From a virus, in UHGV virus genome UHGV-1338014: 34,123 bases of DNA. One strand, 5' to 3'. Of this stretch, positions 53-34,051 are shown one piece after another. The position numbers and the translations under genes were made by a program. The notes under the pieces are model-generated. The model was not told where the DNA came from and did not search any database. It saw only the letters and a program-made list of their open reading frames with translations. The stretch's first letter is position 1. Every line of letters begins with the position of its first letter.

Positions 53-230
53 TGTATTGATTCACGTGAAGTACGAAAAAAACCGGGAGGACATTGGATT
101 ATTCGGGATTTGGCGGGATTAGATTTAGTGGGGCTTGCAAGCCTGTAGGATAGATTTTAGCCGTTACATCTTGAAACGCGAAAGATTGTTGGAAACAGCT
201 TTTGATTCATTAAAGACACGAAAAGCAATT
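53..230 (+). promoter_or_regulatory. Left end (attL) with putative transposase-binding sites L1-L3
   Basis: Repeated CGAAA(A)-containing motifs at about 61-82 (TTCACGTGAAGTACGAAAAAA), 160-180 (TTGAAACGCGAAAGATTG) and 199-221 (TTCATTAAAGACACGAAAAGC), spaced as Mu L1/L2/L3; exact site boundaries are approximate. Confidence 0.7.
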
Positions 231-391
231 ACTTCACGCATCATTTCAAGTACAGCTTCAAAAATGCTTCAAAAACGGTAACAACCAGGCTTTCAGCAAG
301 TGCTGTGTGTCAAAAACAATCATCACTGTTTGGGTATCTTACATATGTAATAACCTGGAGTGAAGTTTATGTCTTAGCCATTACCTGGTTG

Positions 392-916
392 TTATACAGC
401 CTTCTTTACATCGTTTTCTCTTACAGGGAAATTATGTTCTTTGCCTTCATACTGAGACAAAATCTCTCTCACTTTTTCCGGTGGTAATGCCTGAAGAGTT
501 TGCAGGGTTTTCTGTTGCTCCACAGTAATCCCTAATGCCTCTAATGCCTTATCTTTACTGACAATTGTAGGCATAAGTCCTTTAATCCCTGCTACACGAA
601 TGATCTCCACAGCTGCGGCCTGCTCATCTGGTGTTAAGAAGCTCATTGCATAAATTAGCCTCTCATCAACTGTATGGGCGATTGATGTATGCACTGGTTT
701 ATCAGAAAGTGAGGCTCCTTTAATGGCCCTGCGTGTTTCTTCTGGCAGACTGTTGATGTGATACTCATAAGCGACACCTTTCCCACCGTGACGCTGACGT
801 TTTACCCAATCTTCCGCCACAGCTTTCCTGGTAATGTTAGTCGCCAACTTTGGTACACCAGGCATCCCTTCCAGCTCTTTCGCATTAAACCATTCTTTGA
901 TTTCAAAAGACATCAT
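392..916 (-). CDS. c: Prophage repressor c (Mu/D108 family, 174 aa)
   Basis: Minus-strand ORF divergent from ner at the left end. Its N-terminus ([26 protein letters not shown]) parallels the N-terminal DNA-binding region of the transposase encoded at 1331 ([26 protein letters not shown]), the known repressor/transposase relationship in Mu-like phages. Confidence 0.85.
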   Translation of the reverse strand: MMSFEIKEWFNAKELEGMPGVPKLATNITRKAVAEDWVKRQRHGGKGVAYEYHINSLPEETRRAIKGASLSDKPVHTSIAHTVDERLIYAMSFLTPDEQAAAVEIIRVAGIKGLMPTIVSKDKALEALGITVEQQKTLQTLQALPPEKVREILSQYEGKEHNFPVRENDVKKAV

Positions 917-1101
917 TTAAAATCCTAGTGATTTCAATAGAGATAAAATAAATTCATATAAAAATCATACCGTTATGCAAAATTGCGGCAAATCCTATCA
1001 AATCACTATTGATTTGAAAGTGATTCCACACTACATTGCACGATATGCCGTGAGCTACTTTATAGCGTAGCTCACGGGGGAATCTGAAAGGATTACATGA
1101 A
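917..1101. promoter_or_regulatory. Divergent early control region (operators, early and repressor promoters, probable transposition enhancer)
   Basis: AT-rich spacer between divergent c and ner; repeated TGATTTCAA / TGATTTGAAAGTGATT motifs and a perfect inverted repeat at 1048..1077. The operator/enhancer role is by position, from Mu biology. Confidence 0.6.
1048..1077. promoter_or_regulatory. Perfect 11-bp inverted repeat CCGTGAGCTAC-N8-GTAGCTCACGG, candidate Ner operator (D108 type)
   Basis: Seen directly in the sequence just upstream of the ner start. I recall the D108 Ner site being described as 11-bp inverted repeats with an 8-bp AT-rich spacer, but this is from memory. Confidence 0.55.
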
Positions 1102-1323
1102 ATGCATATGAATAAAAGAACTAACAGCCAAGATTGGCACAGAGCTGACATCGTTGCAGCGCTACGAAAACGCAATATGTCACTAGCTGAATTGGGAAGA
1201 TCTAATCATCTTTCGTCTTCAACATTAAAAAATGCTTTGGATAAGAGATATCCGAAAGCGGAGAAAATCATTGCAGATGCACTGGGAATGACACCGCAAG
1301 ATATTTGGCCGTCTCGATACTAG
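1102..1323 (+). CDS. ner: Ner-like early transcriptional regulator (73 aa)
   Basis: Small ORF just upstream of the transposase gene; sequence [24 protein letters not shown]...IWPSRY fits the Ner/Nlp HTH family; AGGA-like RBS upstream. Confidence 0.85.
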
Positions 1324-1330
1324 GTGCGCT

Positions 1331-3319
1331 ATGAAAGAATGGTATACAGCAAAAGAGTTGCTCGGTTTGGCAGGTTTACCAAAGCAAGCCACTAACATTA
1401 CACGTAAGGCACAAAGAGAAGGCTGGGAGTTCAGGCAGGTTGCAGGAACTAAAGGTGTATCATTTGAATTCAATATCAAATCATTTCCTGTCACATTACG
1501 TGCTGAAATTCTGTTGCAACAAGGGAGAATTGAAACAAGCCAAGGGTATTTTGAAATCGCCCGCCCCACGCTGGAAGCCCACGATTATGATCGCGAGGCG
1601 CTGTGGAGCAAATGGGATAACGCCAGCGATTCCCAGCGCAGACTTGCTGAAAAATGGTTGCCTGCGGTTCAGGCTGCAGACGAAATGCTGAACCAGGGGA
1701 TTTCAACGAAAACGGCTTTTGCGACCGTTGCAGGGCATTACCAGGTCAGCGCATCCACTTTGCGGGACAAGTATTACCAGGTACAGAAGTTTGCGAAACC
1801 TGACTGGGCGGCTGCACTTGTTGATGGACGTGGAGCATCCCGTCGCAATGTTCACAAAAGTGAATTTGACGAGGATGCCTGGCAGTTTCTGATTGCAGAT
1901 TATCTGCGACCGGAAAAGCCCGCCTTCCGCAAATGTTATGAGCGTCTGGAACTGGCAGCCCGCGAGCATGGCTGGAGTATTCCCTCCCGTGCCACGGCCT
2001 TTCGCCGGATTCAGCAACTGGACGAGGCAATGGTTGTTGCCTGTCGTGAAGGTGAACATGCACTGATGCATCTGATACCAGCACAGCAGCGAACTGTGGA
2101 ACACCTGGACACCATGCAGTGGATCAACGGCGACGGTTATCTGCATAACGTCTTTGTACGCTGGTTTAACGGTGATGTGATCCGTCCAAAAACATGGTTC
2201 TGGCAGGATGTGAAAACCCGAAAAATTCTGGGCTGGCGCTGCGATGTGAGCGAGAACATTGATTCAATTCGCCTCTCGTTCATGGATGTTGTGACTCGCT
2301 ACGGTATCCCGGAGGATTTTCACATCACCATTGATAACACCCGTGGTGCTGCGAATAAATGGCTGACGGGAGGCGCGCCCAATCGCTACCGCTTTAAGGT
2401 AAAAGAGGACGATCCAAAAGGACTGTTTTTACTGATGGGTGCGAAAATGCACTGGACAAGCGTTGTTGCCGGTAAAGGCTGGGGCCAGGCAAAACCTGTT
2501 GAACGTGCTTTCGGTGTTGGTGGGCTTGAGGAATACGTTGATAAGCATCCGGCACTGGCTGGTGCATATACGGGGCCAAATCCGCAGGCAAAACCTGATA
2601 ACTATGGCGACCGCGCTGTTGATGCAGAGCTGTTTCTGAAAACCCTTGCCGAAGGTGTGGCGATGTTCAATGCCAGAACAGGCCGTGAAACAGAAATGTG
2701 CGGGGGCAAACTCTCGTTTGATGATGTTTTCGAGCGTGAATACGCCAGAACGATTGTGCGTAAGCCAACCGAAGAACAAAAACGGATGCTGTTACTGCCT
2801 GCCGAGGCGGTGAACGTTTCACGCAAAGGCGAGTTTACGCTTAAAGTTGGCGGCTCCCTTAAAGGCGCGAAAAACGTTTATTACAACATGGCGTTAATGA
2901 ATGCCAATGTGAAAAAAGTTGTGGTCAGGTTTGATCCACAGCAGTTACACAGCACGGTTTATTGTTACACCTTGGATGGTCGGTTTATATGTGAAGCGGA
3001 ATGTCTGGCACCTGTTGCATTTAATGATGCTGCGGCAGGCCGCGAATATCGCCGCCGCCAGAAACAACTGAAATCTGCAACTAAAGCAGCCATTAAGGCG
3101 CAGAAGCAAATGGACGCGCTGGAAGTTGCTGAACTGCTGCCGCAGATAGCCGAACCAGCAGCGCCAGAATCAAGGGTTGTTGGTATTTTCCGGCCTTCCG
3201 GTAACACGGTGCAGGTGAAATACCAGGAACCCGATGATGAATATGAAACTGATCGTGATGAATATCTGAATCATTCGCTGGATATTCTGGAACAGAACAG
3301 ACGTAAAAAAGCCATTTAA
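1331..3319 (+). CDS. A: DDE transposase MuA (662 aa)
   Basis: Size and position as Mu A; N-terminal winged-helix end-binding region, central DDE core region, C-terminal basic tail; translation closely resembles Mu A as I recall it. Confidence 0.95.
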
Positions 3320-3357
3320 TTAACGTTTAAACAAAATTTAATTACGAGGTTATTCAG

Positions 3358-4296
3358 ATGAATATTTCCGATATTCGCGCAGGACTGCGCACGCTTGTAG
3401 AAAGTGAAAAAGCGACTTATGCACAAATTGCACGCGAGTCTGGCGTGGCCGCAGGAACGTTAAGCGCATTCGTGAATAACAAGTACAACGGCGACAATGA
3501 ACGTGTTGCGCAGACGCTGGAACGCTGGCTGGAGAACTATCACCGTGCCGCAGAGCTGCCAGAACCACCACGTTTTGTGGAAACCAGAACAGCACGCCAA
3601 ATCTGGACGAGTATGCGTTTTGCCAGCCTGACTGAAAGTATTTCTGTTATCTGCGGTAATCCAGGTGTGGGAAAAACTGAAGCGGCCCGCGAATTTCGTC
3701 GCACCAATAACAATGTCTGGATGATCACCATTACCCCATCCTGTGCCAGTGTTCTGGAATGCCTGACTGAACTGGCTTATGAACTGGGAATGAATGACGC
3801 ACCACGCCGTAAGGGGCCACTCTCCCGCGCTTTGAGACGCCGTCTTGAAGGTACGCAGGGGCTGGTCATTATCGACGAAGCTGATCATCTTGGCGCTGAG
3901 GTTCTGGAAGAACTCCGCCTGTTACAGGAGTCCGCCCGTATTGGCCTTGTTCTGATGGGGAATCACCGCGTTTATTCAAACATGACCGGTGGTAACAGAA
4001 CGGTTGAATTTGCCCGACTGTTTTCCCGTATTGCCAAACGGACGGCAATCAATAAAACCAAAATTGATGATGTAAAGGCCATTGCGGATGCCTGGCAGAT
4101 TACCGGCGAAAATGAGCGGGAATTATTACAGCAGATTGCGCAAAAACCAGGTGCGCTTCGCATCCTGAACCACTCGCTGCGCCTTGCGTCCATGACCGCC
4201 CACGGCAAAGGTGAACGTGTTAATGAAGATTATCTGCGTCAGGCTTTCCGTGAATTAGACCTGGACGTTGATATTTCAACTCTGCTGCGCACGTAA
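3358..4296 (+). CDS. B: Transposition target-DNA activator MuB (AAA+ ATPase, 312 aa)
   Basis: Directly downstream of A; Walker A motif GNPGVGKT and Walker B-like VIIDEAD; length as Mu B. Confidence 0.93.
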
Positions 4297-4309
4297 GGAG
4301 AGCGAAATC

Positions 4310-4537
4310 ATGATGTCACGGAATATCAAAATGGCAACGGAAGTAAAGACCTGGTTACAGGAGCACGGCAGCCACGTCAACGAATCCTGGCTGGGCGTAG
4401 CCCGCCCGGTACTTGAAATCACGTGCCCACCACCGGAGCTGGTCAGAAACGCTGTCAGGATTATGGAGCATAAATCAGGGGTTGCCCGTTCCGTATGGAC
4501 GGCCCGCCTTAATGGTTGCCAGATTATCTGGCGTTAA
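4310..4537 (+). CDS. kil: Small early protein in the position of Mu kil (75 aa)
   Basis: First gene after B; the start at ATG 4310 is preceded by AGGAG, so the upstream extension in the ORF track is probably not translated. Assignment is by synteny only. Confidence 0.55.
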
Positions 4538-4569
4538 TAACGGCTTATTTATTTGTGAGGAATAACAAA

Positions 4570-4833
4570 ATGGCAAAAGTCATTATCGAAATCAAAAATG
4601 CGACATCTGAAGTTAAAGGGCAGCGTTTACGTACCAGTATTAACGTAGAACACAGTGCAGAGCTGGACGGCGATGAATGTACACTCGCTGGCATGGTAGC
4701 GTTACTGGTTCTGGAAAAAAGTCGGGATATTGTTTGCGAGTCAACCCATGAGGCCATTGAAATTCTGAAAAATGACGGCGTCATCACGGGTGGCAGTGTC
4801 ACAAAAACGACAGTTGAAGGAACACGTCACTGA
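4570..4833 (+). CDS. Hypothetical early protein (87 aa)
   Basis: ORF with GAGGA RBS 9 nt upstream of ATG 4570; semi-essential early region; function unknown. Confidence 0.55.
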   Translation: MAKVIIEIKNATSEVKGQRLRTSINVEHSAELDGDECTLAGMVALLVLEKSRDIVCESTHEAIEILKNDGVITGGSVTKTTVEGTRH

Positions 4834-4847
4834 AAGGAACGCTGACA

Positions 4848-5267
4848 ATGAACGCCAGAATCAGAAACGAAATCCAGGCATTAATTCGAATCAAAATGCG
4901 TAATAACAATGGCGGAGACTTACGCGAGTTTATTTGCGCGCGCGAAGTTGAGGGGTATGGCGAAAAGACTTACCTGATTGCATTTGACCATTACAGCATT
5001 TGTGCGCGTTATTGCGGAGAGGCGGTATTCCGCGCCATTACGTTTGGCAATGCTTTCAATGTGGATTTATGGGAATACGTCATGGACCGCGAATACATCA
5101 GCGCGTCAGACCCGGACGCACGGGAGCAGTGGCAGAACATCTGGCGCGATTACCGGCGAATGGCGAATGGCTGGACGCAGGGGACGTATTCTTCCCTTGC
5201 CCTGAAAGCGGTTCAGTTATCGCTGCGGCATATTCCGGCATCACTGCGCGCCCCCCTGTTGTACTGA
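4848..5267 (+). CDS. Hypothetical early protein (139 aa)
   Basis: ORF with AAGGA RBS; tightly packed in the early operon; no recognisable motif. Confidence 0.55.
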   Translation: MNARIRNEIQALIRIKMRNNNGGDLREFICAREVEGYGEKTYLIAFDHYSICARYCGEAVFRAITFGNAFNVDLWEYVMDREYISASDPDAREQWQNIWRDYRRMANGWTQGTYSSLALKAVQLSLRHIPASLRAPLLY

Positions 5268-5567
5268 GTGGTGACCGGAATGATGTGTAAGCGTAAACGC
5301 TGGTCACGCGAAGACCGGGAATTTATCGAAGCCAGTGTCGGGAAAATGACCGTCGAGGAAATGGCGAAAAAACTGAACGTTGCCACAACCGCTCTCCGGG
5401 CACATGCCAGAAGGTACGGAATATCGTTGTGTGTTTACCGAATCAGTGAGCACGACAAATATTTGTGTCGTGAACTTTATAAAGAAGGGCTGGCTATTCA
5501 TGTCATTGCCCAAAAGATGGAATTAAGCAATCGTGCTGTATCCAGTATTGTATACAGCGAATATTAA
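5268..5567 (+). CDS. Hypothetical small protein with helix-turn-helix-like segments (99 aa)
   Basis: ORF beginning at GTG 5268 (alternative ATG 5280); the segment MTVEEMAKKLNVATTALRAHARRYGIS looks like an HTH. Confidence 0.5.
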   Translation: MVTGMMCKRKRWSREDREFIEASVGKMTVEEMAKKLNVATTALRAHARRYGISLCVYRISEHDKYLCRELYKEGLAIHVIAQKMELSNRAVSSIVYSEY

Positions 5568-5587
5568 TTAACAGGAGCTTTATTTAT

Positions 5588-6112
5588 ATGGCTAAGTCAG
5601 CAAAACGAATCAGGAACGCCGCAGCGACTTATGTTCCGCAATCCCGAGATGCCGTGGTATGTGATATCCGCCGGATTGGTGACCTGCAACGCGAAGCAGC
5701 ACGACTTGAAACGGAAATGAATGACGCTATCGCCGAGATTACAGAAAAATACGCCTCACAGATTGCGCCACTTAAAACCAGTATTGAAACCCTTTCAAAA
5801 GGCATTCAGGGATGGTGTGAAGCGAACCGTGACGAACTGACGAACGGCGGCAAGGTGAAGACGGCAAACCTGGTAACCGGTGATGTGTCATGGCGTCAGC
5901 GCCCACCATCAGTAAGTATTCGCGGTGTGGATGCGGTAATGGAAACGCTGGAGCGTCTTGGCCTGCAACGTTTTATTCGCACGAAACAGGAAATCAACAA
6001 GGAAGCGATTTTACTGGAGCCGAAAGCGGTCGCAGGTGTTGCCGGAATTACAGTTAAATCGGGCATTGAAGATTTTTCTATTATTCCATTTGAACAGGAA
6101 GCCGGTATTTAA
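5588..6112 (+). CDS. gam: Gam host-nuclease inhibitor / DNA-end-binding protein (174 aa)
   Basis: Length and position as Mu Gam; translation resembles Mu Gam as I recall it (Ku-like end-binding protein). Confidence 0.85.
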   Translation: MAKSAKRIRNAAATYVPQSRDAVVCDIRRIGDLQREAARLETEMNDAIAEITEKYASQIAPLKTSIETLSKGIQGWCEANRDELTNGGKVKTANLVTGDVSWRQRPPSVSIRGVDAVMETLERLGLQRFIRTKQEINKEAILLEPKAVAGVAGITVKSGIEDFSIIPFEQEAGI

Positions 6113-6210
6113 TACCACCATTAATATTTAATTAATTCACACTCTTTTAATTATGGCGCGATGCGTCAGGGGATTGCTCGCGCCTGAATCTGATATCTGA
6201 GAAATAAAAA

Positions 6211-6741
6211 ATGATTGATGCAAAAATTCTGAACGGTGTCAGCACATTACTACGGGCTTACGGGCGTCTGACCTGTGGCGTTCTGGCTGAAAAAATGAAG
6301 ATGCCTCCCTCGTCAATGGTGTATTTCCTGCGTGATGCAGTTGATGCCGGAATGCTGACAGAATGCAACGGATTTTATGACGTTCCGCGCCCTCGTCCGA
6401 CGCCGCCAGTAAGACGAAACGCAACAACGGAACATCCCGATGTTGATGATGCTCGATGGTGCGCGTTCCGCCGCTCTTTGCCCTGGCTGGAAGGCAATGC
6501 TATTCCGGCACTGGCAAAAGAATTTGCGACAGGCGTACTGACCTGCGAGTCGGTTTACATCGTTGCAGAAGTGGGCGACGAGATGTGCAAACAGGGAATG
6601 CCCCGTTTTGTGATGGCGTATATCGATATCCGGCAGGGACGTTTTATTTGTGGCTCCAGTGGCAGGAATATCACCGACCACGTCCTGCGCTATCTCATTC
6701 TTGATTATTCACCGGCTCCGGTAGCGGTTGGCATCCAGTGA
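6211..6741 (+). CDS. Hypothetical protein with N-terminal winged-helix-like region and Pro-rich linker (176 aa)
   Basis: ORF with RBS; not recognisable as a canonical Mu early gene; function unknown. Confidence 0.5.
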   Translation: MIDAKILNGVSTLLRAYGRLTCGVLAEKMKMPPSSMVYFLRDAVDAGMLTECNGFYDVPRPRPTPPVRRNATTEHPDVDDARWCAFRRSLPWLEGNAIPALAKEFATGVLTCESVYIVAEVGDEMCKQGMPRFVMAYIDIRQGRFICGSSGRNITDHVLRYLILDYSPAPVAVGIQ

Positions 6742-6770
6742 AATCTTTTATTGCGAAGAGGTATTACGAA

Positions 6771-7160
6771 ATGAATAACGCAGAGAAAAATGAAATTCAA
6801 TCCACATCTGTCACTACCAGAAAACATCTTTATGATTTTTATGTCGCCTATAACCAGTGGTTAAAAAATGGTGCACCAGAAACAGAGGGGGAATTATTTG
6901 TCCGGTATTTTGGATTATGTAGCAATGCTTATAGTTATTTCGAATCCATCGGAGCATACGGCGAAGATGCAGCAGAACAATTGCGCACAGATTTTATCGC
7001 GAACGGACTGGATGAATTATTGCCTTTCAATGAGGACAGCGCGCACTACAAGGAAGAGTGCAGGTTTGAAAGGTGTCACCTGAATCTTGGTCGTGTGGCA
7101 TGGGTGGAAAAACACTGCATGAAGGAGATGGGGCAAAATGAGTCGCACATCCCTGATTAA
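6771..7160 (+). CDS. Hypothetical protein, AT-rich gene (129 aa from ATG 6771; frame open from GTG 6738)
   Basis: Visibly lower GC than neighbours; GAAGAGG RBS before ATG 6771; 3' end overlaps the gemA start. Confidence 0.5.
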   Translation: MNNAEKNEIQSTSVTTRKHLYDFYVAYNQWLKNGAPETEGELFVRYFGLCSNAYSYFESIGAYGEDAAEQLRTDFIANGLDELLPFNEDSAHYKEECRFERCHLNLGRVAWVEKHCMKEMGQNESHIPD

Positions 7161-7689
7161 ATTAATTCATGTCGCCCGGCGTGATCTACAACTCGACGAT
7201 GACACTTACCGCGCCTTTCTGGTGCAGTTCACGGGCAAAACCAGTTGCCGCGAGCTGACCGTCGCACAACTGGAACAGGTGCTCGATGCCATGAAAGAGC
7301 GCGGTTTTAAGAAGCAGAAAAAACATCCCCGCCGTCGCTTTAAGGGGCATGTCACACCGCGTGAGAAGATTTATAAAATCTGGCAGCAGATGTTTCAGGA
7401 TGGCTTTGTCGCTGATGGCAGTGATGCTGCGCTGGACAAATACGTTGCACGCCTGACGGCCAGACGTAATGGCGGTCAGGGTGTTTCCACGCTGGCCTGG
7501 TGTCACGGGGAATCGTTGCATGTTGTGCTCGAAACGCTCAAACAGTGGCATATGCGCTGCATCCGGGACGCCTTTGCCCGACATGGTGTGCCTTTACCTG
7601 TGAGCGAAACCGGGCGGGAGCTGCGCGGCTATGATGCACTGACCAGTGCGTATGCCCGCGCACGAAACAGCGGGAGAATTGCTGTATGA
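7138..7689 (+). CDS. gemA: GemA-like early protein (183 aa)
   Basis: Length matches Mu GemA and it sits immediately upstream of the Mor/C-family gene with start/stop overlap. Confidence 0.75.
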   Translation: MSRTSLIKLIHVARRDLQLDDDTYRAFLVQFTGKTSCRELTVAQLEQVLDAMKERGFKKQKKHPRRRFKGHVTPREKIYKIWQQMFQDGFVADGSDAALDKYVARLTARRNGGQGVSTLAWCHGESLHVVLETLKQWHMRCIRDAFARHGVPLPVSETGRELRGYDALTSAYARARNSGRIAV

Positions 7690-8572: not shown

Positions 8573-8593
8573 TCATCTTTTTTAATTCAATGA

Positions 8594-8616
8594 AGCCGGT
8601 AAATCCGGCTTTTTTT
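8594..8616 (+). terminator. Rho-independent terminator (AGCCGG-TAAAT-CCGGCT plus T7)
   Basis: GC stem, 5-nt loop and a run of seven T directly after the stop of the 8093..8572 ORF; an identical copy lies at 16155..16177. Confidence 0.75.
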
Positions 8617-8671
8617 ATGCCTCCGGCACTATGAAGCAGACCACGTTTAAATCTGCTTCACAGGTGCTTTT

Positions 8672-9268: not shown

Positions 9269-9269
9269 T

Positions 9270-11294: not shown

Positions 11295-11296
11295 GC

Positions 11297-25689: not shown

Positions 25690-26762
25690 TGGGCTCCGTG
25701 ATTCTTACCGTTGACGGCAAATTGTGGGAAGGCTGGACGGAAATGTCCGTCAGTCGTTCCCTGAAGGCGATTGCCGGTGAGTTTGATCTCAGTGTGACAA
25801 CCCGCTGGTCAGCGGCGGCACCGCGCGTGATTCGTGAGGGGCAACCCTGCACGGTCAGGCTGGGCGCGGATACCGTGCTGACGGGGTATATCGATGATTT
25901 TATTCCCAGCTATGACGCAGAAAACGTGGAGATTCGCGTCATGGGGCGCGACAAAACCGGTGACCTGGTGGACTGCTCTGTGGTGCATTCGTCCGGGAAA
26001 TGGAAAGGCGTGCGGCTTGAACAGGTGGCGGCTGATGTCTGCCGCCCGTTCGGGATAACCGTCATCACGGAAACCCCGACCGGGGAGGCGTTTGCGTCTG
26101 TCGTTCTGGAACAGGGTGAAACGGGCTTTGAACTGCTCGACCGGCTGGCAAAACAGCGCGGCGTTCTGCTGACGTCTGACGGAGGGGGTAACCTGATTAT
26201 CACCCGCGCCTCTTCCGTTCGCGCAGGTGTCTCACTGGTGCTGGGAAAAAATATCCTCGCCGCCCGTGGGCGCTTCAGCTGGCGGGAGCGTAACAGTCAG
26301 TACATCATCAAGGGCACCACCAGTGCCGGTGGCAAACTGTGGGACAGCCAGCCTGCCTCGATGGTGGGCGGTCGCCAGTACATCACCGAAGACCCGGAAA
26401 TTAACCGTTACCGCCCGCGCATTCTGGTCAATGAAGACAGTCTGACCGTGGGTGGAGCCAGCATTCGCGGGGAATGGTTCAAGGCCCGGATGCTGGGAGA
26501 GGCCCGCACGACGGAAATCACGGTGGCAGGCTGGCGCGAACAGGGCGACAGCGGCCCGCTGTGGCAGACCAACCGCCTTGTTGATATCGACGACAGTATT
26601 CAGAACCTGAAAACCACCTGGTTGATATCCGGGGTGACCTGGACGGATGGTGCACAGGGGCGGATAACGGTTCTGGCGCTGGTTCCGCCTGAATCACTGG
26701 ACATGCCGGAAATGAAAGTGAAAACGAAGAAATCAGCAAAAGCGGTGGTCACATGGGATTAA
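25689..26762 (+). CDS. P: Baseplate hub protein, Mu P / P2 gpD-like (357 aa)
   Basis: Position and size. Confidence 0.7.
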   Translation: MGSVILTVDGKLWEGWTEMSVSRSLKAIAGEFDLSVTTRWSAAAPRVIREGQPCTVRLGADTVLTGYIDDFIPSYDAENVEIRVMGRDKTGDLVDCSVVHSSGKWKGVRLEQVAADVCRPFGITVITETPTGEAFASVVLEQGETGFELLDRLAKQRGVLLTSDGGGNLIITRASSVRAGVSLVLGKNILAARGRFSWRERNSQYIIKGTTSAGGKLWDSQPASMVGGRQYITEDPEINRYRPRILVNEDSLTVGGASIRGEWFKARMLGEARTTEITVAGWREQGDSGPLWQTNRLVDIDDSIQNLKTTWLISGVTWTDGAQGRITVLALVPPESLDMPEMKVKTKKSAKAVVTWD

Positions 26763-27289
26763 GCGCAATTACCCGCCGTCTGCGGCTGATGGTTGACCGT
26801 GCCATTGTCCGCATGGTGTCTGACAGTCTGGAGCGGCAGAACCTGCAAATCCAGACGCTGGCAGATGCCACCGATGACGACGTGGAACGCTTCCAGAATT
26901 ACGGTTTTACTTCCGTTCCGCCGGAAGGTTCTGAAGCCATAGTGCTGGCCGTTGGCGGACGGCGTGACGGGCTGGTTGCCATCGCAGTGGAGGACAAGCG
27001 ATGTCGCCCTAAAGGCCTGTCTCCCGGCGACGTCCGACTGTATCACCGGGACGGAAAATCACACATCACCCTGAAGGAAAACGGCGTTATTGAAATAACA
27101 GGGGAACAATTAGACGTTTCAGGGACAACGGTAAATCTCACCGCCGACGAATTGCTGAATATTATCGGTAAACAAATGAAATTCGTCGGTCCCTGTGAAT
27201 TTACTGAAGATGTCACCATCAACGGTAAATCTTTCAGCAATCATATTCATAAGGACGGCGACAATGAGAAGACATCACCGCCCGTATGA
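26753..27289 (+). CDS. Baseplate spike / assembly protein V-like, Mu gp45 (178 aa)
   Basis: Size, position and beta-rich composition typical of gpV-like spike proteins. Confidence 0.65.
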   Translation: MGLSAITRRLRLMVDRAIVRMVSDSLERQNLQIQTLADATDDDVERFQNYGFTSVPPEGSEAIVLAVGGRRDGLVAIAVEDKRCRPKGLSPGDVRLYHRDGKSHITLKENGVIEITGEQLDVSGTTVNLTADELLNIIGKQMKFVGPCEFTEDVTINGKSFSNHIHKDGDNEKTSPPV

Positions 27290-27738
27290 CGACAGGAATC
27301 CGCTGGAATAACATGCTCTCACGGGGTGACATCACCGTCACCCATAACGGCCTCTCACGGGATGAGGGGCTGGTCACTCAGGTTCTTATCTGCCTTTTCA
27401 CCGATGCCCGCGCTGATGACGATGATGTCATCCCTGATGGTTCCGGCGACCCGCGTGGCTGGCCGGGCGACACATACAGCGATTTTTCGTGGGGTTCCCG
27501 CCTGTGGCTGCTTGAGCGTGAAAAGCTGACGGAAGATGTCCGCCTGCGCGTGGAAGATTACGCACGGCTGTCCATGCAACCGCTGCTGCGGGCCGGTTAC
27601 GCCCGTAACGCCACTGTCACGGCCAGAATCATCGCCCCTGACTGTATTGCCTTTCAGGTGGTGTTAACCCGCCCGGACAAAACCACGCTCACAATCGAAA
27701 TCACCCGTCGATGGGAGGCCACCATTAATGCCGTATGA
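27286..27738 (+). CDS. Baseplate protein gpW / gp25-like, Mu gp46 (150 aa)
   Basis: Size and position. Confidence 0.65.
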   Translation: MTTGIRWNNMLSRGDITVTHNGLSRDEGLVTQVLICLFTDARADDDDVIPDGSGDPRGWPGDTYSDFSWGSRLWLLEREKLTEDVRLRVEDYARLSMQPLLRAGYARNATVTARIIAPDCIAFQVVLTRPDKTTLTIEITRRWEATINAV

Positions 27739-28804
27739 AATCCCCACGCTGGGCAAACTGATTGCCGACGGCGAAAAAGATATTGCGTATGAACTCGGCC
27801 TGCAAAAGCTGCCGCCTGTCAGTGTTGAGCAGGCGCTGAACGTGTCATTCAGCAGTCAGGTCCGGGATTTATACGACCATCAGAGCTGGATTAAGGACCA
27901 GATAATCCCGTCCACCACGTCTGATGATGAAACCATTATCAAAACAGCAACGTATGAAGGGGTTATCCGCAAACAGGCCACCTTTGCCAGCGGGCCGGTG
28001 ACCTTCACCAGTCAGTCTCTCCTTCCGGCTGAAACACGGATGCAGTCCGACACGAATCAGGTGTACCAGGTGCTCACATCCGGTGAGGTACGGGACGGCG
28101 AGGTCACCGTCATTGTGCAGGCTGAAGAAGCCGGGGTGGCGGGTAATCTTGCTGCCGGTGCCGTGCTGACCCTGTTATCTCCGCTGCCCGGAACGGCCAG
28201 TGCAGGCGTGGTGGCTGAAGGTGGCATCACCGGTGGCGCAGACACTGAATCCATCGCGGAGCTGCTGGACCGTCTGCTGTATGTGCGTCGCAATCCCCCG
28301 GTGGGCGGTGCTCTGCATGATTACGTCATCTGGGCTCGCGAAGTGGCTGGCGTCAGCCGCGCGTGGGCGTGGGATGCGTGGCACGGCCCCGGCACGGTCG
28401 GACTGGCATGGCTTTACGATGACCGTGAAGATATTGTACCGACCCGCAAAGACCTGAAGACAATGGAGCAGTATCTGTTCTGCCACAAACACCCGGCCAC
28501 TGGGGTTATGGTGGGCAAACCGGGCGGCATTGAGGTCTGGCCGGTTCAGGTCAGGCTGAAGAAAGTCGACCTGTCCATCCGTCTGACACCGGACGGCCAG
28601 GCAAACAGGAACGCCGTCCGGGCAAACCTGACCGCATTACAGAAAACGCTGGCCCCTGGTCAGATGCTGCCGGTGTCCTCGCTGCGCACGGCCATCGGTA
28701 TGACATCCGGCATTACAGATTACTTTCTCAACATCGGGGAAGACACCACCAGTGATGTGGATGAGCTTATCACCATCGGGGAGGTGACATGGCTCACAGC
28801 GTGA
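27728..28804 (+). CDS. Baseplate J-like protein, Mu gp47 (358 aa)
   Basis: Size and position. Confidence 0.7.
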   Translation: MPYEIPTLGKLIADGEKDIAYELGLQKLPPVSVEQALNVSFSSQVRDLYDHQSWIKDQIIPSTTSDDETIIKTATYEGVIRKQATFASGPVTFTSQSLLPAETRMQSDTNQVYQVLTSGEVRDGEVTVIVQAEEAGVAGNLAAGAVLTLLSPLPGTASAGVVAEGGITGGADTESIAELLDRLLYVRRNPPVGGALHDYVIWAREVAGVSRAWAWDAWHGPGTVGLAWLYDDREDIVPTRKDLKTMEQYLFCHKHPATGVMVGKPGGIEVWPVQVRLKKVDLSIRLTPDGQANRNAVRANLTALQKTLAPGQMLPVSSLRTAIGMTSGITDYFLNIGEDTTSDVDELITIGEVTWLTA

Positions 28805-29763
28805 CGGAATGGCTGACCGCACTGCAACAGGTCATGCCACGGGGTAAAGCATGGACGCGTGATAACGACGCGGATTTAAACCGTTTTTTAAGGGCGCTTG
28901 CAGCGCGTTTAACCCGCATTGAATACGACGCCTCGCGTCTGCATGTGGAGATGCGCCCGGAAACCATGCTCCAGCTGCTGCCGGAGTGGGAGCAGTATCT
29001 GGCGCTGCCGGAATGCGGAATTGCCGCCACCACAACGGAAGCCCGCCGTCGTGCCGTGGTGGAGAAATACCGCCGCAAGGGTGGGCTGGCAACCTGGCAG
29101 ATTGAAGCCGCTGCTGCGGCGCTGGGCTTCACCATCAAGGTGACGGCCGTTCTGCCGCATCACTGCCTGCGCGACTGCATGTACCCGCTGCATCCGGCGC
29201 GGTATCGCTGGCTGCTGAAAGTGGAGGTTCAGGACAGCGACGCCGGGCGTTTTACCTGTGTTGATGATGTCATGACACCATTAATCAGCGGACGCACCCG
29301 CGAGCTGGAATGTCTCCTGAAAAATTACCGCATGGGTGGAACAGGGTATGAGTTTTTTTACACCGATGGTAACGATGAGGCTGTGTCCGGTCCGCCATTA
29401 TCCGTTAATCGCATACAGATTCAGGCCGGATATAAACCAGAAGAACCGTTAACGGTTAACTGTGCAGGGCTGCATTTTGCACTTGTTCCGGCACTGACAG
29501 GTAAGCCGCTGACAATTAACCGGATTAACTTTTATGCCGCCCGTCCGACGGCAGAACCACTGGTACTCAGCAGGGCGCAATTGCACTCAGGTCTGCCGAC
29601 AACGGACCCCATGACCATGAGCAGCGCACAGTTGCAGACGGGATACAGGACCCGCTCCCCCGTACCGGTTAACAGTATGCAGTTGCAGACAGCCAACAGA
29701 ACCCGTGAACCGTTATTGATTAATCACCCGGGACTGCATTTTGCTGTGGTCACGTCCGAATGA
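28789..29763 (+). CDS. Tail protein, Mu gp48 / P2 gpI-like N-terminal domain with a C-terminal repeat extension (324 aa)
   Basis: About 190 aa gpI-like region, then about 130 aa made of degenerate peptide repeats (…N-R-I-Q-I-Q-A-G-Y… / …A-Q-L-Q-T-G-Y… / …M-Q-L-Q-T-A-N…) and two copies of HPGLHFA-like ends. Confidence 0.65.
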   Translation: MAHSVTEWLTALQQVMPRGKAWTRDNDADLNRFLRALAARLTRIEYDASRLHVEMRPETMLQLLPEWEQYLALPECGIAATTTEARRRAVVEKYRRKGGLATWQIEAAAAALGFTIKVTAVLPHHCLRDCMYPLHPARYRWLLKVEVQDSDAGRFTCVDDVMTPLISGRTRELECLLKNYRMGGTGYEFFYTDGNDEAVSGPPLSVNRIQIQAGYKPEEPLTVNCAGLHFALVPALTGKPLTINRINFYAARPTAEPLVLSRAQLHSGLPTTDPMTMSSAQLQTGYRTRSPVPVNSMQLQTANRTREPLLINHPGLHFAVVTSE

Positions 29764-29786
29764 CATAAAATAAAAGGAGAGCCGCT

Positions 29787-30845
29787 TTGAATATTATTAA
29801 ACTCGAAAGTTTTCGACAAATTCCGGCGAATGAGGGATTGTGCGAGAACTATTATTCAACAAATATTATTTCAGCACTGAACGAAAACGGTGTCACGCTT
29901 ATCAATGATATGTCCGGTTCTGTAACATCCGTCTGTCGTGGCACTCAGGCCGTAAATACTGTAGAAAGAACGGGGCTGATTTTTACGACACCCTCATATG
30001 TCACACTGTACAGCACACTTCCGGACTTAAAAGCCTCAGCTGTACAGCTGGGATTTCGTCTGACATTAAGTGCGGGAAAGAAATATTCATCTTCGCCATC
30101 CCACATCAGGATTAATGGCTATTCATTTACAACCCCGTATCCTGATGAAGCAGCCAGTTATTACTATGAAATTTTCGCAACGCGAAACGAAAACGGCTAT
30201 GTCTCAGCCAGTCTGTACTGCAACCGCTCATTAGTTGGAAATGCATCGTTTTATGTATCAGATGACCGGACTGACAAAATTCAGGTGAGTATTGGTAGTG
30301 GTGACAATATTTTTTCATCGGGTGCATCCGGCACGTTAATGCTGGGTGATATGTACTGTGGAACAGTGGCATACGGAAAAAATAACAGCGCGGAACCCGC
30401 CCTGCTCGGAAGTATTGAGGTCAGATACAGCCCGGTAACGGCATTTACCGGTGGAAGCGCCAAAAACTCACTGAATAAAGATATTGTCACGGGGCTGAAC
30501 ACCTCTGACAGCGAGGCCGGATATCTGATGCTCTCGCCGTCCCTGAATGCAGCACAGGCCACGTTTGGTGCGGTGGATAACAGCAACAGTGATGTTGTGG
30601 CTGTTATGGCCTCGGTCACTTACCGCGGTGCTGATGCCCCCAATAACCGCCTGGCCTGGAAAGTGAAAAATGGCAGCCATGCAGGCGCAACGATTACAGA
30701 GAATGGCGTACAAAGCGACACAAACAGCTGGACGACTGTCTCACAGAGTTTTATGACCCAACCAGGAGGGAACACTCCCTTCGCTAAGGGTGAGCTGACT
30801 TTTACAGCGGAGTTGTTTAATCAGGCAAGGAGCGCTACTGAATAA
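29787..30845 (+). CDS. Hypothetical Ser/Thr/Asn/Gly-rich protein, probable tail-fibre or receptor-binding component (352 aa, TTG start)
   Basis: AAAGGAGA RBS 6 nt upstream of TTG 29787; lower GC than flanking genes; beta-rich composition. Confidence 0.55.
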   Translation: MNIIKLESFRQIPANEGLCENYYSTNIISALNENGVTLINDMSGSVTSVCRGTQAVNTVERTGLIFTTPSYVTLYSTLPDLKASAVQLGFRLTLSAGKKYSSSPSHIRINGYSFTTPYPDEAASYYYEIFATRNENGYVSASLYCNRSLVGNASFYVSDDRTDKIQVSIGSGDNIFSSGASGTLMLGDMYCGTVAYGKNNSAEPALLGSIEVRYSPVTAFTGGSAKNSLNKDIVTGLNTSDSEAGYLMLSPSLNAAQATFGAVDNSNSDVVAVMASVTYRGADAPNNRLAWKVKNGSHAGATITENGVQSDTNSWTTVSQSFMTQPGGNTPFAKGELTFTAELFNQARSATE

Positions 30846-30887
30846 TAAATATCTCTGTATACACAATATCAGGAGAAATAATCAGAT

Positions 30888-31958
30888 ATGTTTCACATTG
30901 ATAATAATACTGGCGTGCCGGTTATGCCGCCCGTCGCGGCTGAATACAGTAAAACGACGCTTTATTTCACCGAAGGAGGGAACGGTATTCCACCCACGTA
31001 TCCGGGGCCGGACTGGTTTAATATCGTGCAGTCCGAAATGCTGGAAATTCTCCGGCAGGCAAATATCAAACCGGACAAAAACACGACCAACCAGATTATG
31101 ACGGCGCTGAAAAAGCTGTTTATCACTAACAGTGGTTCAGCCGGGGCTATTGCCGAATTAACCGGTCAGAATAATACGTTCCCGTATTTTACGGGCGAAG
31201 ACACAATGTCATTAACGCCACTCAGTGCGTTTGTGCGCAGTATTCTCGGCAAAGAAAGTGCAACAGATTTTGCAGATGCACTGAAAGTCATAAAACAATC
31301 AGGCGACACGATGACAGGAGAGTTGAAAATCCGTGGTGTTAATGCGCTGAGGATTTTCGACGAAGCCTTTGGCCTGATTTTTCGTCGTTCGGAAGAGTGC
31401 CTGCACCTTATCCCTACCAGTGAAGGTCAGGGCGAGAATGGCGATATTGGTCCACTTCGCCCGTTCGCTATTAATCTGCGGACGGGTGAAATATCCATGT
31501 CGCATAAAGTGTCTGTTGGCGGTGGTTCGCAGGTCAATGGTGCGCTGGGTATCGGCGTTCAGAACGCGCTGGGCGGAAACTCAATTGCTTTCGGGGATAA
31601 CGATACCGGCCTGAAACAGAATGGTGACGGCATTCTGGATGTTTATGCGAATAACCAGCATGTGCTGCGTTTTCAGAGTGACAGCATTCAGAGCAATAAA
31701 GCAGTAAACGTTACAGGGCGGGTAACACCGTCAGACTACGCAAATTTTGATGCCCGCTATAAGCAGAGGACGGAGGGCGTGGAGGATATCCGGCTGGGAG
31801 GCCAGAGGGTCGACGGACACTATGATGATGATTTTACCGTTCCTTCAGGGTATGTCGTGGTTGGTGGTGATGTGCATCCTTCAACGTCATTAAAGCTGTA
31901 CTCAAGACCCCTTCAGAAATTAATTAATGGCACCTGGTATAACGCGGCGAGTGTATAA
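30888..31958 (+). CDS. Tail fibre protein (356 aa)
   Basis: N-terminus MFHIDNNTGVPVMPP...GIPPTYPGPDWFNIVQSEMLEIL resembles the conserved N-termini of enterobacterial phage side tail fibres; followed by a tail-fibre assembly gene. Confidence 0.7.
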   Translation: MFHIDNNTGVPVMPPVAAEYSKTTLYFTEGGNGIPPTYPGPDWFNIVQSEMLEILRQANIKPDKNTTNQIMTALKKLFITNSGSAGAIAELTGQNNTFPYFTGEDTMSLTPLSAFVRSILGKESATDFADALKVIKQSGDTMTGELKIRGVNALRIFDEAFGLIFRRSEECLHLIPTSEGQGENGDIGPLRPFAINLRTGEISMSHKVSVGGGSQVNGALGIGVQNALGGNSIAFGDNDTGLKQNGDGILDVYANNQHVLRFQSDSIQSNKAVNVTGRVTPSDYANFDARYKQRTEGVEDIRLGGQRVDGHYDDDFTVPSGYVVVGGDVHPSTSLKLYSRPLQKLINGTWYNAASV

Positions 31959-31960
31959 CA

Positions 31961-32506
31961 ATGCTTCATTTAAAAAATATTACTGCGGGTAATCCGAAAA
32001 CGGCAGAGCAATATCAGATGACAAAGCGGCATAGTATTGTCTGGCTTTTTTCGGAAGATGGCAAAAACTGGTATGAAGAACAGAAGAATTTTGCCAGCGA
32101 CACCATAAAAGCAGCCTATAACGACAGCGGGCGCGTGGTGTGGGTCGGTAAGGATGTGACAGGTATCGAACCCACTAACGTCAGTATCATTGAACTCCCG
32201 GATATTACTGCTAACCGCCGCATCACCGTACCGGGATACTGGTTTTACCGCAATGATGAATTTGTTTTTGATTACAAATTAAAAGCAGAAGACGAGCGTG
32301 ATACCCTGTTACAACAGACCAGCATCATGACCAGCGAATGGGAAAAAGACCTGCTGTTGGGATTAATCAGCGACGAAGACAGGGAAAAGCTGAAAGCGTA
32401 CCGTATTTACGCAAAGGCGTTGCAGGCGATGGATTTAAGCACCATCACCGATAAAACCACATATAACGCCATTAACTGGCCGGAGCGTCCCGATGCCGCA
32501 GCTTAA
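31961..32506 (+). CDS. Tail fibre assembly chaperone (Tfa / Mu U-like, 181 aa)
   Basis: Typical Tfa size and position immediately 3' of the fibre gene. Confidence 0.75.
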   Translation: MLHLKNITAGNPKTAEQYQMTKRHSIVWLFSEDGKNWYEEQKNFASDTIKAAYNDSGRVVWVGKDVTGIEPTNVSIIELPDITANRRITVPGYWFYRNDEFVFDYKLKAEDERDTLLQQTSIMTSEWEKDLLLGLISDEDREKLKAYRIYAKALQAMDLSTITDKTTYNAINWPERPDAAA

Positions 32507-32963
32507 AGGTGTGATTAAAACGCCCACAGGAGAACCGCTGGGCGGCACAACCATCACGCTGACCTCCCTGCACAACCGTGCAGGGATTCTGAAAGGTGTT
32601 TTCAGCCACGTCACTACACAGAGCGGGGAGTACGACTTCCCCGTTCTGCCGGGCGTGTACAGTGTTCGCCTGACACAGAGCGCACAGCGCCTTTCAGAAA
32701 TCGGCATCATTCGCGTTTATGAAGATTCACAGGACGGTTCGCTTAACGATTTTTTGTCGGTGACAGATGCAGATTTGCGCCCTGAATCTCTTAAAAAGTT
32801 CGAAGAGATTGCAATGCAGATACAAAAAAGTGCGGAAAGTGTCAGATTATATGCAGAGGAGGTGAAACGGGATTGCGCAATTACCCTCGAAAACAGAAAA
32901 CAGACAGAGAGACTGCTGTCCCTGATAGCAGAGCCTCTTTCTCAGAGTGCCGCAGAAAGCTGA
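32493..32963 (+). CDS. Stand-alone prophage tail-fibre N-terminal domain protein (156 aa), likely remnant of a second fibre gene
   Basis: IRVYEDSQDGSLNDFLSVTDADLRPE matches the hallmark motif of the lambda-type side-tail-fibre N-terminal domain; the ORF stops after about 156 aa with no fibre shaft. Confidence 0.6.
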   Translation: MPQLKGVIKTPTGEPLGGTTITLTSLHNRAGILKGVFSHVTTQSGEYDFPVLPGVYSVRLTQSAQRLSEIGIIRVYEDSQDGSLNDFLSVTDADLRPESLKKFEEIAMQIQKSAESVRLYAEEVKRDCAITLENRKQTERLLSLIAEPLSQSAAES

Positions 32964-33003
32964 CTCAAAAAAGGTTAATAATTAAGCGTTTTGTATAGAT
33001 TAT

Positions 33004-33100
33004 GACGATCGATACCATCATATCGATCGTCGTTTTACATCATGTGTGGTTAAATATCCCCAGCCCTCCGGGTGGTCGTATCTGGTTATTACACAGGGGG
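33004..33100 (+). promoter_or_regulatory. com-mom regulatory region with a perfect 11-bp palindrome carrying two GATC sites
   Basis: GACGATCGATA-N6-TATCGATCGTC at 33004..33031 (GATC at 33007..33010 and 33025..33028), followed by the promoter region and the com RBS. Mu mom is known to be controlled by Dam methylation upstream of its promoter. Confidence 0.6.
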
Positions 33101-33104
33101 AATC

Positions 33105-33290
33105 ATGGACTCTGTTCGCTGTAAAAACTGCAATAAGTTACTGTTTAAAGGAGGTTTTAAGCATATAGAAATTAAATGCCCTCGCTGTAAACGTTACATT
33201 GTCATATCGAATGCCAAAGAGCATCCCACGGAGCTGTATTGTGGGAAAAGAGAAGAAATCACGCATTCTGACAAAACCCTGCGTTATTGA
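33105..33290 (+). CDS. com: Com, zinc-finger translational activator of mom (61 aa)
   Basis: CKNC...CPRC zinc-finger motif; small ORF overlapping the 5' end of mom; AGGGGG RBS before ATG 33105. Confidence 0.85.
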
Positions 33291-33936
33291 GTATGAAGGC
33301 CGGATTGTCGGCTATGGTTCAAAGGAGTTGCGCGTTGAAACCATATCCTGCTGGCTGGCCCGCACAATCATTCAGACAAAGCATTATTCCCGCCGTTTTG
33401 TGAATAACTCCTACCTGCATCTGGGCGTATTCAGCGGACGTGATCTGGTTGGCGTTCTTCAGTGGGGATATGCCCTTAATCCCAACTCAGGGCGTCGTGT
33501 CGTGCTTGAAACAGATAACCGGGGTTACATGGAACTGAACCGCATGTGGTTACACGACGACATGCCCCGCAATTCTGAATCACGGGCCATCAGCTACGCG
33601 CTGAAAACCATCAGGTTACTGTATCCGTCAGTGGAGTGGGTTCAGTCCTTTGCAGACGAACGCTGCGGGCGTGCTGGCGTGGTATATCAGGCGTCGAATT
33701 TTGATTTTATTGGTAGCCATGAAAGCACATTCTACGAACTGGACGGCGAGTGGTATCACGAGATAGCGATGAACGCGATTAAGCGCGGAGGTCAACGAGG
33801 CGAGTATTTGCGGGCTAATAAGGAACGGGCAGTGGTACACAAATTTAATCAATATCGCTACATCAGGTTCCTGAACAAGCGCGCAAGAAAACGCCTAAAC
33901 ACCAAACTATTCAGGGTTCAGCCATACCCGAAGTGA
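33199..33936 (+). CDS. mom: Mom DNA-modification protein (anti-restriction adenine modification)
   Basis: Last gene before the right end, overlapping com. The frame is open from 33199, but the real start may be the internal GTG at 33241, which would give 231 aa. Confidence 0.85.
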
Positions 33937-33957
33937 CCCCACGTTATGAATAAAAAA

Positions 33958-33984
33958 ACAGCGGTTAATGCCGCTGTTTCGTTT
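33958..33984 (+). terminator. Terminator-like hairpin after mom (ACAGCGG-TTAATG-CCGCTGT, A-run upstream and T-rich downstream)
   Basis: 7-bp GC-rich stem about 22 nt after the mom stop, flanked by A7 and TTTCGTTT. Confidence 0.6.
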
Positions 33985-34051
33985 GAAGCACGAAAATTAA
34001 AGTTTTCGCATTTATCGTGAAACGTTTTCGCGTTTTTCGTGCGCCGCTTCA
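33975..34051 (+). promoter_or_regulatory. Right end (attR) with putative transposase-binding sites R1-R3
   Basis: CGAAA-containing repeats (TTCGTGCTTCAAAC complement, TTTCGCATTTATCGTGAAACG, TTTCGCGTTTTTCGTGCGCCGCTTCA) terminating in ...CA at 34051. Confidence 0.7.

Follow-up and report, generated by a model that had tools for sequence, protein, structure and literature searches.

The stretch of DNA UHGV-1338014 (34,123 nucleotides (nt) in full, here called the window) holds a transposable prophage of the Mu type between two short pieces of Escherichia coli chromosome. The prophage occupies positions 53-34051 (33,999 bp). Read directly in the window, its first letters are TGTATTGATTCAC (TGTATTGATTCACGTGAAGTACGAAAAAAACC... 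from position 53) and its last letters, which end at 34051, are GCGCCGCTTCA (...CGTTTTTCGTGCGCCGCTTCA; ...TTTTTCGTGCGCCGCTTCA). Host flank within the window amounts to 52 nt on the left and 72 nt on the right. The repeat cores listed below were located with the core of the consensus for transposase binding that the record of phage D108 annotates. From left to right, the host sequences and the two prophage ends are:

1-52: left host flank, torR-torC intergenic, with part of tor box 1 at 1-8
9-18: tor box 2, CTGTTCATAT (box sequence from PMC9239176)
30-39: tor box 3, CCGTTCATCC (box sequence from PMC9239176)
48-52: left copy of the target-site duplication, GCCGC, read directly
53-391, plus strand: attL, the D108-type left end, with terminal TG at 53-54
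68-79, 173-184 and 213-224, plus strand: transposase-binding repeat cores L1, L2 and L3, all in the same orientation
33937-34051, plus strand: attR, a Mu-type right end without D108 gene 56, with terminal CA at 34050-34051
33985-33996, 34003-34014 and 34025-34036: repeat cores R3 (inverted), R2 and R1, with R1 and R2 adjacent
34052-34056: right copy of the target-site duplication, GCCGC, read directly; tor box 4 begins with its final C
34056-34065, plus strand: tor box 4, CTGTTCATAT (box sequence from PMC9239176)
34056-34123, plus strand: right host flank, with tor box 4, the torC promoter region and the torC start codon at 34114

An earlier note on this DNA had claimed that both ends of the element are present, bracketed by GCCGC at 48-52 and 34052-34056, and that they mark a single Mu-type insertion. 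The coordinates are exact. A matching pentamer has a chance expectation of 1 in 1,024, and the empty site was used as the decisive test. The 52-nt left flank and the 72-nt right flank, joined minus one GCCGC, make a 119-nt query. Of 5,426 complete E. coli genomes, 5,416 contain this query without a break, and the top matches are 100% over 119/119 nt. Because the joined flanks are contiguous host sequence, a chance pentamer match is excluded, and the claim of a single insertion holds. Repair of a 5-bp staggered cut at GCCGC left the two copies now present.

The uninterrupted locus is the E. coli torR-torC intergenic region, and the prophage sits between tor box 3 and tor box 4. Where the empty site is annotated, 21 nt separate the query from the end of torR on its left, and the torC start corresponds to window position 34114; torR is on the minus strand, farther left and outside the window. 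The insertion is 58 nt upstream of the torC start codon, and the late genes and mom of the prophage are directed toward torC. Upstream tor boxes also add to activation of the promoter. The torCAD promoter has CTGTTCATAT as boxes 1, 2 and 4 and CCGTTCATCC as box 3, and binding of TorR at box 3 likely relies on box 4 (PMC9239176). The 34 kb of the prophage now lie between boxes 1-3, which are retained on the torR side, and box 4 with the torC promoter. TorR-dependent induction of torCAD by trimethylamine N-oxide (TMAO) should therefore be lost or strongly reduced. The window thus provides a clean Mu-type insertion, in a natural isolate, within the well-studied promoter of torCAD, the TMAO respiration operon.

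The left end is followed by the genes of immunity and transposition:

392-916, minus strand: c repressor, 174 amino acids (aa), 99% identical to D108 c and 29% to Mu c; Pfam HTH_Tnp_Mu_1
917-1101: c-ner intergenic control region, inside the 93.65% match to D108
1102-1323, plus strand: ner, 73 aa, 97% identical to D108 Ner and 49% to Mu
1331-3319, plus strand: transposase A, 662 aa, 98% identical to D108 A
3358-4296, plus strand: MuB-type AAA+ target-capture ATPase, 312 aa, 89% identical to Mu/D108 B; Pfam Phage-MuB_C

Comparison of the ends with Mu-family termini bore out the earlier assignment, with a different closest relative at each side. The left 300 bp differ very little from D108 and plainly more from Mu, whereas the right 150 bp align to Mu, including R1-R3, and not to D108, which has the extra gene 56 there. 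All six repeat cores are intact and follow the Mu arrangement, with the layout L1-spacer-L2-L3 on the left and an inverted R3 on the right. The transposase shows the same double ancestry by domain. Its identity to MuA is 46% in domain I-alpha, 100% in I-beta-gamma, 99% in II and 93% in III; the enhancer- and operator-binding I-alpha is of D108 type, while I-beta-gamma binds the ends and II is catalytic. The DDE triad is intact (D268/D335/E391, aligned to MuA D269/D336/E392), and all the transposase Pfam domains were found (HTH_Tnp_Mu_1, HTH_Tnp_Mu_2, DDE_2 and Mu-transpos_C). Pfam searches across the prophage found all the Mu families to be expected of c, Ner, A, B, Gam, GemA, Mor, Com and Mom. 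By analogy, the gap at 917-1101 probably holds the operators, the enhancer (internal activation sequence) and the early promoter.

If the element behaves like Mu and D108, its D108-type repressor would keep the early promoter in the c-ner gap silent, and derepression would allow Ner, A and B to be made. A would bind L1-L3 and R1-R3 through its Mu-identical I-beta-gamma and the D108-type operator/enhancer through I-alpha, and the genome would then copy itself by replicative transposition. The single Mor-family activator would switch on the operons for lysis, head and tail. Packaging would be by headful, with the heterologous terminase starting from a pac signal close to the left end, and Mom would modify the DNA.

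The same termini recur elsewhere in E. coli. The left 4.3 kb are present, at 94-99.5% identity, in some 44 complete E. coli genomes, and similarity begins at query position 53, or at 46-51 in a few, which is consistent with chance identity in the flank. No complete E. coli genome, these ~44 carriers included, has the tor insertion, and the exact junction does not occur in the species-representative genomes. In five relatives in which both junctions were read, identical termini occupy five loci, and a separate, perfect 5-bp duplication flanks each copy:

CCCGC: in a gene for an SDR (short-chain dehydrogenase/reductase) oxidoreductase
CAGAT: in the tail-fibre gene of another prophage
TTGCA: upstream of pduA
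TTAGG: between irp1 and irp2
ACGAG: between yehR and yehQ

An index of public assemblies lists the identical 662-aa transposase in 246 blocks. Eight copies among the matches listed occupy eight more loci, with different flanking genes and the same left terminus, and none of these eight is at tor. The same termini are thus found at at least 13 loci besides tor. The target consensus of Mu is 5'-CYSRG (PMC7350765), and nine of the 14 target pentamers fit its Y-S-R core, for which the chance is 1 in 8 (binomial P = 8e-6). Copies at many loci with Mu-like pentamers therefore show that this type of element is mobile in nature and picks its targets like Mu.

Beyond the ends and the transposase, the prophage is a mosaic. 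In local blastn searches, 53-4537 corresponds to D108 1-4487 (93.65%), 4305-33932 to a prophage of E. coli E300082 (99.0%, a continuous 29.6-kb match in a finished chromosome), and 33115-34051 to Mu 35778-36717 (87.9%). The left crossover falls inside kil, at about 4400-4425, where a left module of the D108/RIVM type meets a body of the E300082 type. The prophage is thus a natural mosaic of a D108-type attL, c, ner and A, a Mu-type B, Mu-like early genes and a Mu-type com-mom-attR, and the ~25 kb from mor to the tail fibres are from a different Mu-like lineage. Proteins of that part keep synteny with Mu and only 27-60% aa identity; from lysis to baseplate they are 27-50% identical or have no Mu counterpart. 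No detectable counterpart exists for Mu gp6, gp12-15, gp19, gp20, C, lys, gp23-25, gp35, gp37 or gin. Steps in GC content (47-49% in the early region, 57% in head and tail, 47% in fibre and mom) were rejected as evidence of chimerism, because Mu itself shows 48/55/46%.

Composition also accounts for the size of the prophage. The earlier note had argued from length that the element is not Mu itself. It is indeed distinct, and the 2.7-kb difference is a symptom of that distinctness rather than the reason for it. The shortfall is the net outcome of module replacement and not of a deletion in a Mu genome. On one side of the balance, the prophage lacks gin, S'/U', gp12-15 and the gp19-C region and has a shorter F, tape measure and N; on the other, it has a longer gp48-like gene and an extra 352-aa open reading frame (ORF).

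D108 (NC_013594, genus Muvirus) is the closest relative at the left. It shares attL to kil (93.65% DNA identity), the L1-L3 layout and mom (97% aa), and the near-identity of c (99%), ner (97%) and A (98%) implies the same immunity type and the same enhancer-binding specificity. D108 differs over the ~25 kb from mor to the tail fibres, which are not alignable and whose proteins are 27-60% identical or unrelated. At 37.2 kb it is also longer than the 34.0-kb prophage, which has no gin, G segment, C, gene 56, Mu-type lysis genes or gp12-15. Mu (NC_000929) shares domains I-beta-gamma, II and III of MuA (93-100%), B (89%), the right end with com-mom (88% DNA identity), the 5-bp duplication, the target preference and the gene order throughout. 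It differs in immunity (prophage c 29%, ner 49%, A I-alpha 46%), in having both Mor and C where the prophage has one Mor/C-family activator, and in its endolysin, which in the prophage is of the GH108 type.

For the late module, the nearest sequenced phage is Klebsiella phage Kp4866-3 (OK490420, an unverified record of 33.1 kb). It is colinear with the prophage from mor to gp48 and shares portal (71% aa), large terminase (70%), major head protein (73%), sheath (76%), tube (82%), the GH108 endolysin with a holin-like gene, and a conserved left-end block. Its transposase is only 26% identical, its ends (…AAATCATTTGATA…) resemble the E300082 type, it has no gam, com or mom homologues, and its fibres are different. 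The E300082 prophage, which lies in mhpA, belongs to the late-module lineage and has a different c, ner and B, a 695-aa transposase and different ends. Relatives of the E300082 type seem to start with TATRRAGAGGTAAATCATTTGATAC and not with the canonical 5'-TG of Mu. Prophages of the RIVM/NCCP/JNE type share the left module and most late genes at 99.4-99.5%, with identical termini. The RIVM type (RIVM_C019217, between yehR and yehQ) differs in several early genes and in the distal fibre/assembly cassette. The next-closest portals are those of the Vibrio phage martha 12B12 type (56-57% aa); over martha 12B12, related marine Mu-like myoviruses and Shewanella phage MuM16-2 the range is 51-57%. These phages are distant, infect other hosts and have no detected DNA-level similarity to the prophage. 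Overall, the collection searched contains no sequenced phage isolate that is closely related to the prophage. The prophage type is nevertheless common in public E. coli assemblies and routinely annotated, and mosaicism among transposable phages is well known. Current understanding is not overturned by these findings. What they do show is that a D108 transposition and immunity module circulates in E. coli joined to a morphogenesis module that is absent from the sequenced E. coli phage isolates in the collection searched.

The left-end block mentioned above may bear on how such modules come to be combined:

83-108, plus strand: conserved block CCGGGARGAnnnTGGATnnnnCGGGA, 26 nt, a candidate pac signal, ~30 nt inside the left terminus

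It is common to three types of end and transposase, those of Mu/D108, of the E300082 type and of Kp4866-3, whose terminal transposase-binding sequences differ. All 20 of 20 exact matches to the block in IMG/VR lie ~30 nt from the left end of a transposable phage. Its position coincides with that to which the Mu pac site has reportedly been mapped (Groenen and van de Putte 1985). We raise tentatively, as a possibility against which the balance still tilts, that the block is a common pac signal, that complete transposition modules (both ends with c/ner/A/B) and complete morphogenesis modules are for this reason freely exchangeable, and that the prophage is a viable product of such exchange, in which a D108 transposition engine works with a single Mor-type activator and dispenses with a Mu-type strong gyrase site (SGS) and MuC. 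A shared pac would explain the swapping of transposition and packaging modules. If so, this prophage family would be a natural experiment on which cis-elements of Mu (SGS, MuC sites, pac) are truly required.

Taken together, these observations make it very probable that 53-34051 is one intact temperate Mu-type prophage, a D108-containing mosaic, which MuA-type DDE transposition brought into the E. coli chromosome. The earlier description of the element as undegraded stands in large part: all 49 defined ORFs are open, and their lengths equal the PGAP calls in finished-genome relatives wherever compared. The part that does not stand concerns the ORF at 32493-32963, which matches only the N-terminal ~120 residues of tail-fibre families of 300-800 aa. 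It is kept across the lineage, PGAP calls it an incomplete pseudogene in relatives, and it is probably a relic of fibre-cassette exchange.

Several further points count against this reading. A central strong gyrase site is required for efficient Mu replication (PMC3820752), and no sequence similar to that of Mu was detected. There is no MuC orthologue; in tblastn searches Mu C matches only the Mor-family ORF (32%). The consensus of MuC sites is TTAT-N5-6-ATAA (PMC12867686), and no such site is present in the gaps at the starts of operons. MuC sites at operon starts were accordingly rejected: the two matches to the pattern in the window are both in coding DNA, at chance level. A question of compatibility also arises, as a terminase that is 46-50% identical to that of Mu and a single late activator that is likewise non-Mu (Mor-family, 60% to Mu Mor) must both function with a left end of the D108/Mu type and a Mu-type mom operon. 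The effect on torCAD, finally, is one that we infer, and read-through from the mom side toward torC may occur.

Some of these points feed the only live rival, in which the prophage is structurally complete and yet a defective, dead-end recombinant of mismatched modules, inherited vertically as a cryptic prophage. The missing MuC, the lack of MuC sites in the operon-start gaps and of a detectable SGS homologue, a small terminase only 46% identical to Mu gp27, and the tail-fibre relic would all be expected of such an element. What makes it improbable is the distribution of its relatives. The same architecture and the identical transposase occur at many loci in unrelated E. coli, with a separate target duplication wherever both junctions were read. 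Many loci with fresh termini require recent mobility, and spread between strains would most plausibly be as virions. The ORFs are all intact, and the left-end block shared with the lineage that donated the terminase offers a possible route to packaging compatibility. An intact temperate prophage therefore remains the preferred reading, and natural chimeras of this kind are ones in which the needs for pac, SGS and the Mor/C cascade could be tested.

Still less likely, to the point of being very hard to sustain, is that the prophage is a strain variant of Mu/D108 (Muvirus mu, genus Muvirus) with a deletion of ~2.7 kb. The similarity that suggests it is confined to the modules already described: attL, c, ner and A match D108 at 97-99%, B and mom match Mu at 89% and 97%, and the ends align. 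However, identity-weighted, non-overlapping high-scoring segment pairs to D108 add up to ~7.9 kb of 34.0 kb, or ~23% of the prophage, and no phage record in the searched collection covers more than 35% of either half of it. The ICTV convention for a genus is about 70% or more genome-wide nucleotide similarity, and ~23% similarity to D108 is therefore far below genus level. Head, tail and lysis proteins are 27-50% identical to those of Mu or have no counterpart, and the prophage is without gin, G segment, C, lys and gp12-15. Of the features of Muvirus (Mu, D108, SfMu), the prophage lacks the nucleotide similarity, the G segment with Gin, and the Mor-to-C cascade. It does have those of Mu-type transposable phages at large, namely the 5-bp duplication with an empty site, TG...CA ends with repeats, a DDE transposase with MuB, the target consensus, the Mu gene order, and Mu head genes with a contractile tail. 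It also has the features of the D108 immunity and transposition type (c, ner, A I-alpha, left end and operator region). The earlier placement in the Mu/D108 family is thus true of the transposition module, and by nucleotide identity the prophage falls outside the genus Muvirus. For taxonomy and annotation this is a caution that Mu ends and a MuA-type transposase need not mean Muvirus.

That the pentamers are coincidental or the sequence an assembly chimera, with no real single insertion, has nothing in its favour beyond the 1/1,024 prior for a chance pentamer and has a negligible probability, given that 5,416 complete genomes have the exact empty site and that finished genomes from different laboratories show identical termini with independent duplications, and given the continuous 29.6-kb match of 99% to a finished chromosome, and a left module 99.4-99.5% identical to others.

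Where the regulatory sites of Mu are missing, other non-coding sequences stand out:

8592-8622, plus strand: first copy of a 31-nt cassette, a terminator-like hairpin GAAGCCGGTAAATCCGGCTTTTTTT followed by TGCCT, before the lysis genes
16013-16226, plus strand: largest internal non-coding gap, 214 nt, 0.9 kb left of the centre of the element (17052)
16153-16183, plus strand: second copy of the 31-nt cassette, before the protease and capsid genes

The cassette occurs in exactly two copies in the window, with similarity that extends farther downstream, and the two are possibly paired units of a terminator and a late promoter. The central gap also contains three tandem GTTTT(T)GAAGG repeats, at 16089, 16109 and 16120. 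The gap is a candidate late promoter and/or positional equivalent of the strong gyrase site of Mu, and the repeats (16089-16130) might bind an activator or belong to an equivalent of the gyrase site. Homology of the gap to the Mu SGS was rejected, as a local alignment score of 28 against a shuffled maximum of 29 is not significant. A general role of the motif GTTTTTGAAGG in late promoters was also rejected: it is found in three tandem copies in the central gap only, and the other two matches in the window are single, with one mismatch.

Between the transposition genes and the central gap lie the early genes, the activator, the lysis cluster and the first head genes:

4310-4537, plus strand: kil, 75 aa, containing the left crossover
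4570-7160, plus strand: semi-essential early genes, the first five 73-91% identical in aa to Mu
4570-4833, plus strand: gp7-like
4848-5267, plus strand: gp8-like
5280-5567, plus strand: gp9-like
5588-6112, plus strand: gam
6211-6741, plus strand: gp11-like
6771-7160, plus strand: uncharacterised ORF with no Mu counterpart
7138-7689, plus strand: gemA/gp16, 183 aa, 81% identical to Mu GemA
7686-8096, plus strand: Mor/C-family transcription activator, 136 aa, the sole one, 60% identical to Mu Mor and 32% to Mu C
8093-8572, plus strand: 159-aa ORF, phrog_38744, with no Mu counterpart and no Pfam or PADLOC match
8672-10711, plus strand: lysis and small-gene cluster, in place of Mu lys/gp23
8672-9268, plus strand: GH108 endolysin with a peptidoglycan-binding domain
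9270-9497, plus strand: gp18-like ORF
9481-9891, plus strand: ORF
9879-10487, plus strand: holin-like ORF, 202 aa, with a weak GTA_holin_3TM Pfam match; named TatA/TatE family by PGAP in relatives
10484-10711, plus strand: TraR/DksA-like ORF
10696-11001, plus strand: DUF2730
11007-11294, plus strand: gp26-like
11297-11584, plus strand: uncharacterised ORF
11574-12155, plus strand: gp27-like small terminase/DUF3486, 46% identical to Mu gp27
12152-13687, plus strand: large terminase, 50% identical to Mu gp28
13684-15255, plus strand: Mu-type portal, 31% identical to Mu
15248-16012, plus strand: Mu F-like head morphogenesis protein, 254 aa against 439 in Mu, 34% identical

The product of 9879-10487 is more likely a holin than a Tat component, because the gene is in the lysis cluster beside the GH108 endolysin. 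One small ORF carries the PGAP label VpaChn25_0724-family protein in relatives.

The remaining genes, from the protease to mom, are:

16227-17189, plus strand: protease I-like
17189-18091, plus strand: major head protein, gpT-like, 37% identical to Mu T
18170-18481, plus strand: ORF
18481-18918, plus strand: gp36-like
18918-19460, plus strand: Phage_tail_S/G-like ORF; Mu G itself gives no tblastn match
19457-20068, plus strand: ORF, phrog_490
20034-20234, plus strand: DUF2635
20234-21709, plus strand: sheath, 41% identical to Mu L
21719-22075, plus strand: tube
22077-22472, plus strand: chaperone
22559-24415, plus strand: tape measure
24415-25689, plus strand: DNA-circularisation N-like
25689-26762, plus strand: P-like hub
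26753-27289, plus strand: gp45
27286-27738, plus strand: gp46
27728-28804, plus strand: gp47
28789-29763, plus strand: gp48/YmfQ-like with an extra C-terminal part, 324 aa against 180 in Mu
29787-30845, plus strand: 352-aa ORF, phrog_8291, with no Pfam or PADLOC match
30888-31958, plus strand: tail fibre
31961-32506, plus strand: tail-fibre assembly protein, 43% identical to Mu U'
32493-32963, plus strand: tail-fibre N-terminal fragment, 156 aa, the relic discussed above
32964-33104, plus strand: region upstream of com, not alignable to the Pmom region of Mu, with a GATC cluster within about 33005-33030
33105-33290, plus strand: com, 73% identical to Mu Com
33199-33936, plus strand: mom, 97% identical to Mu Mom

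Late genes gave matches to the Mu-specific Pfam families Phage_Mu_Gp27, Portal_Mu, Phage_Mu_F, Mu-like_Pro, Mu-like_gpT, DNA_circ_N and Phage_Mu_Gp48, and also to sheath. The extension of the gp48-like protein and the 352-aa ORF are extra baseplate or fibre-proximal parts that are not in Mu. Ten uncharacterised ORFs gave no PADLOC match to defence or anti-defence cargo, and the window contains no tRNA genes. The GATC cluster at 33005-33030, with two CGATCG motifs, resembles the Dam/OxyR-controlled region upstream of mom in Mu.

An equivalent of the G segment was considered for the fibre region and rejected. No match to Gin was found by tblastn, and inverted repeats in 28.7-33.3 kb are only short and imperfect; as the fibre region is without long inverted repeats, there is no G-segment equivalent. 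The fibre ORFs are all on one strand. The distal tail fibre and its assembly gene (30888-32506) differ between prophages that are otherwise 99.5% identical, and the fibre-assembly protein is only 34% identical to its RIVM-type version. These differences in the distal fibre and assembly genes indicate swapping of host-range cassettes instead of a G-segment switch.

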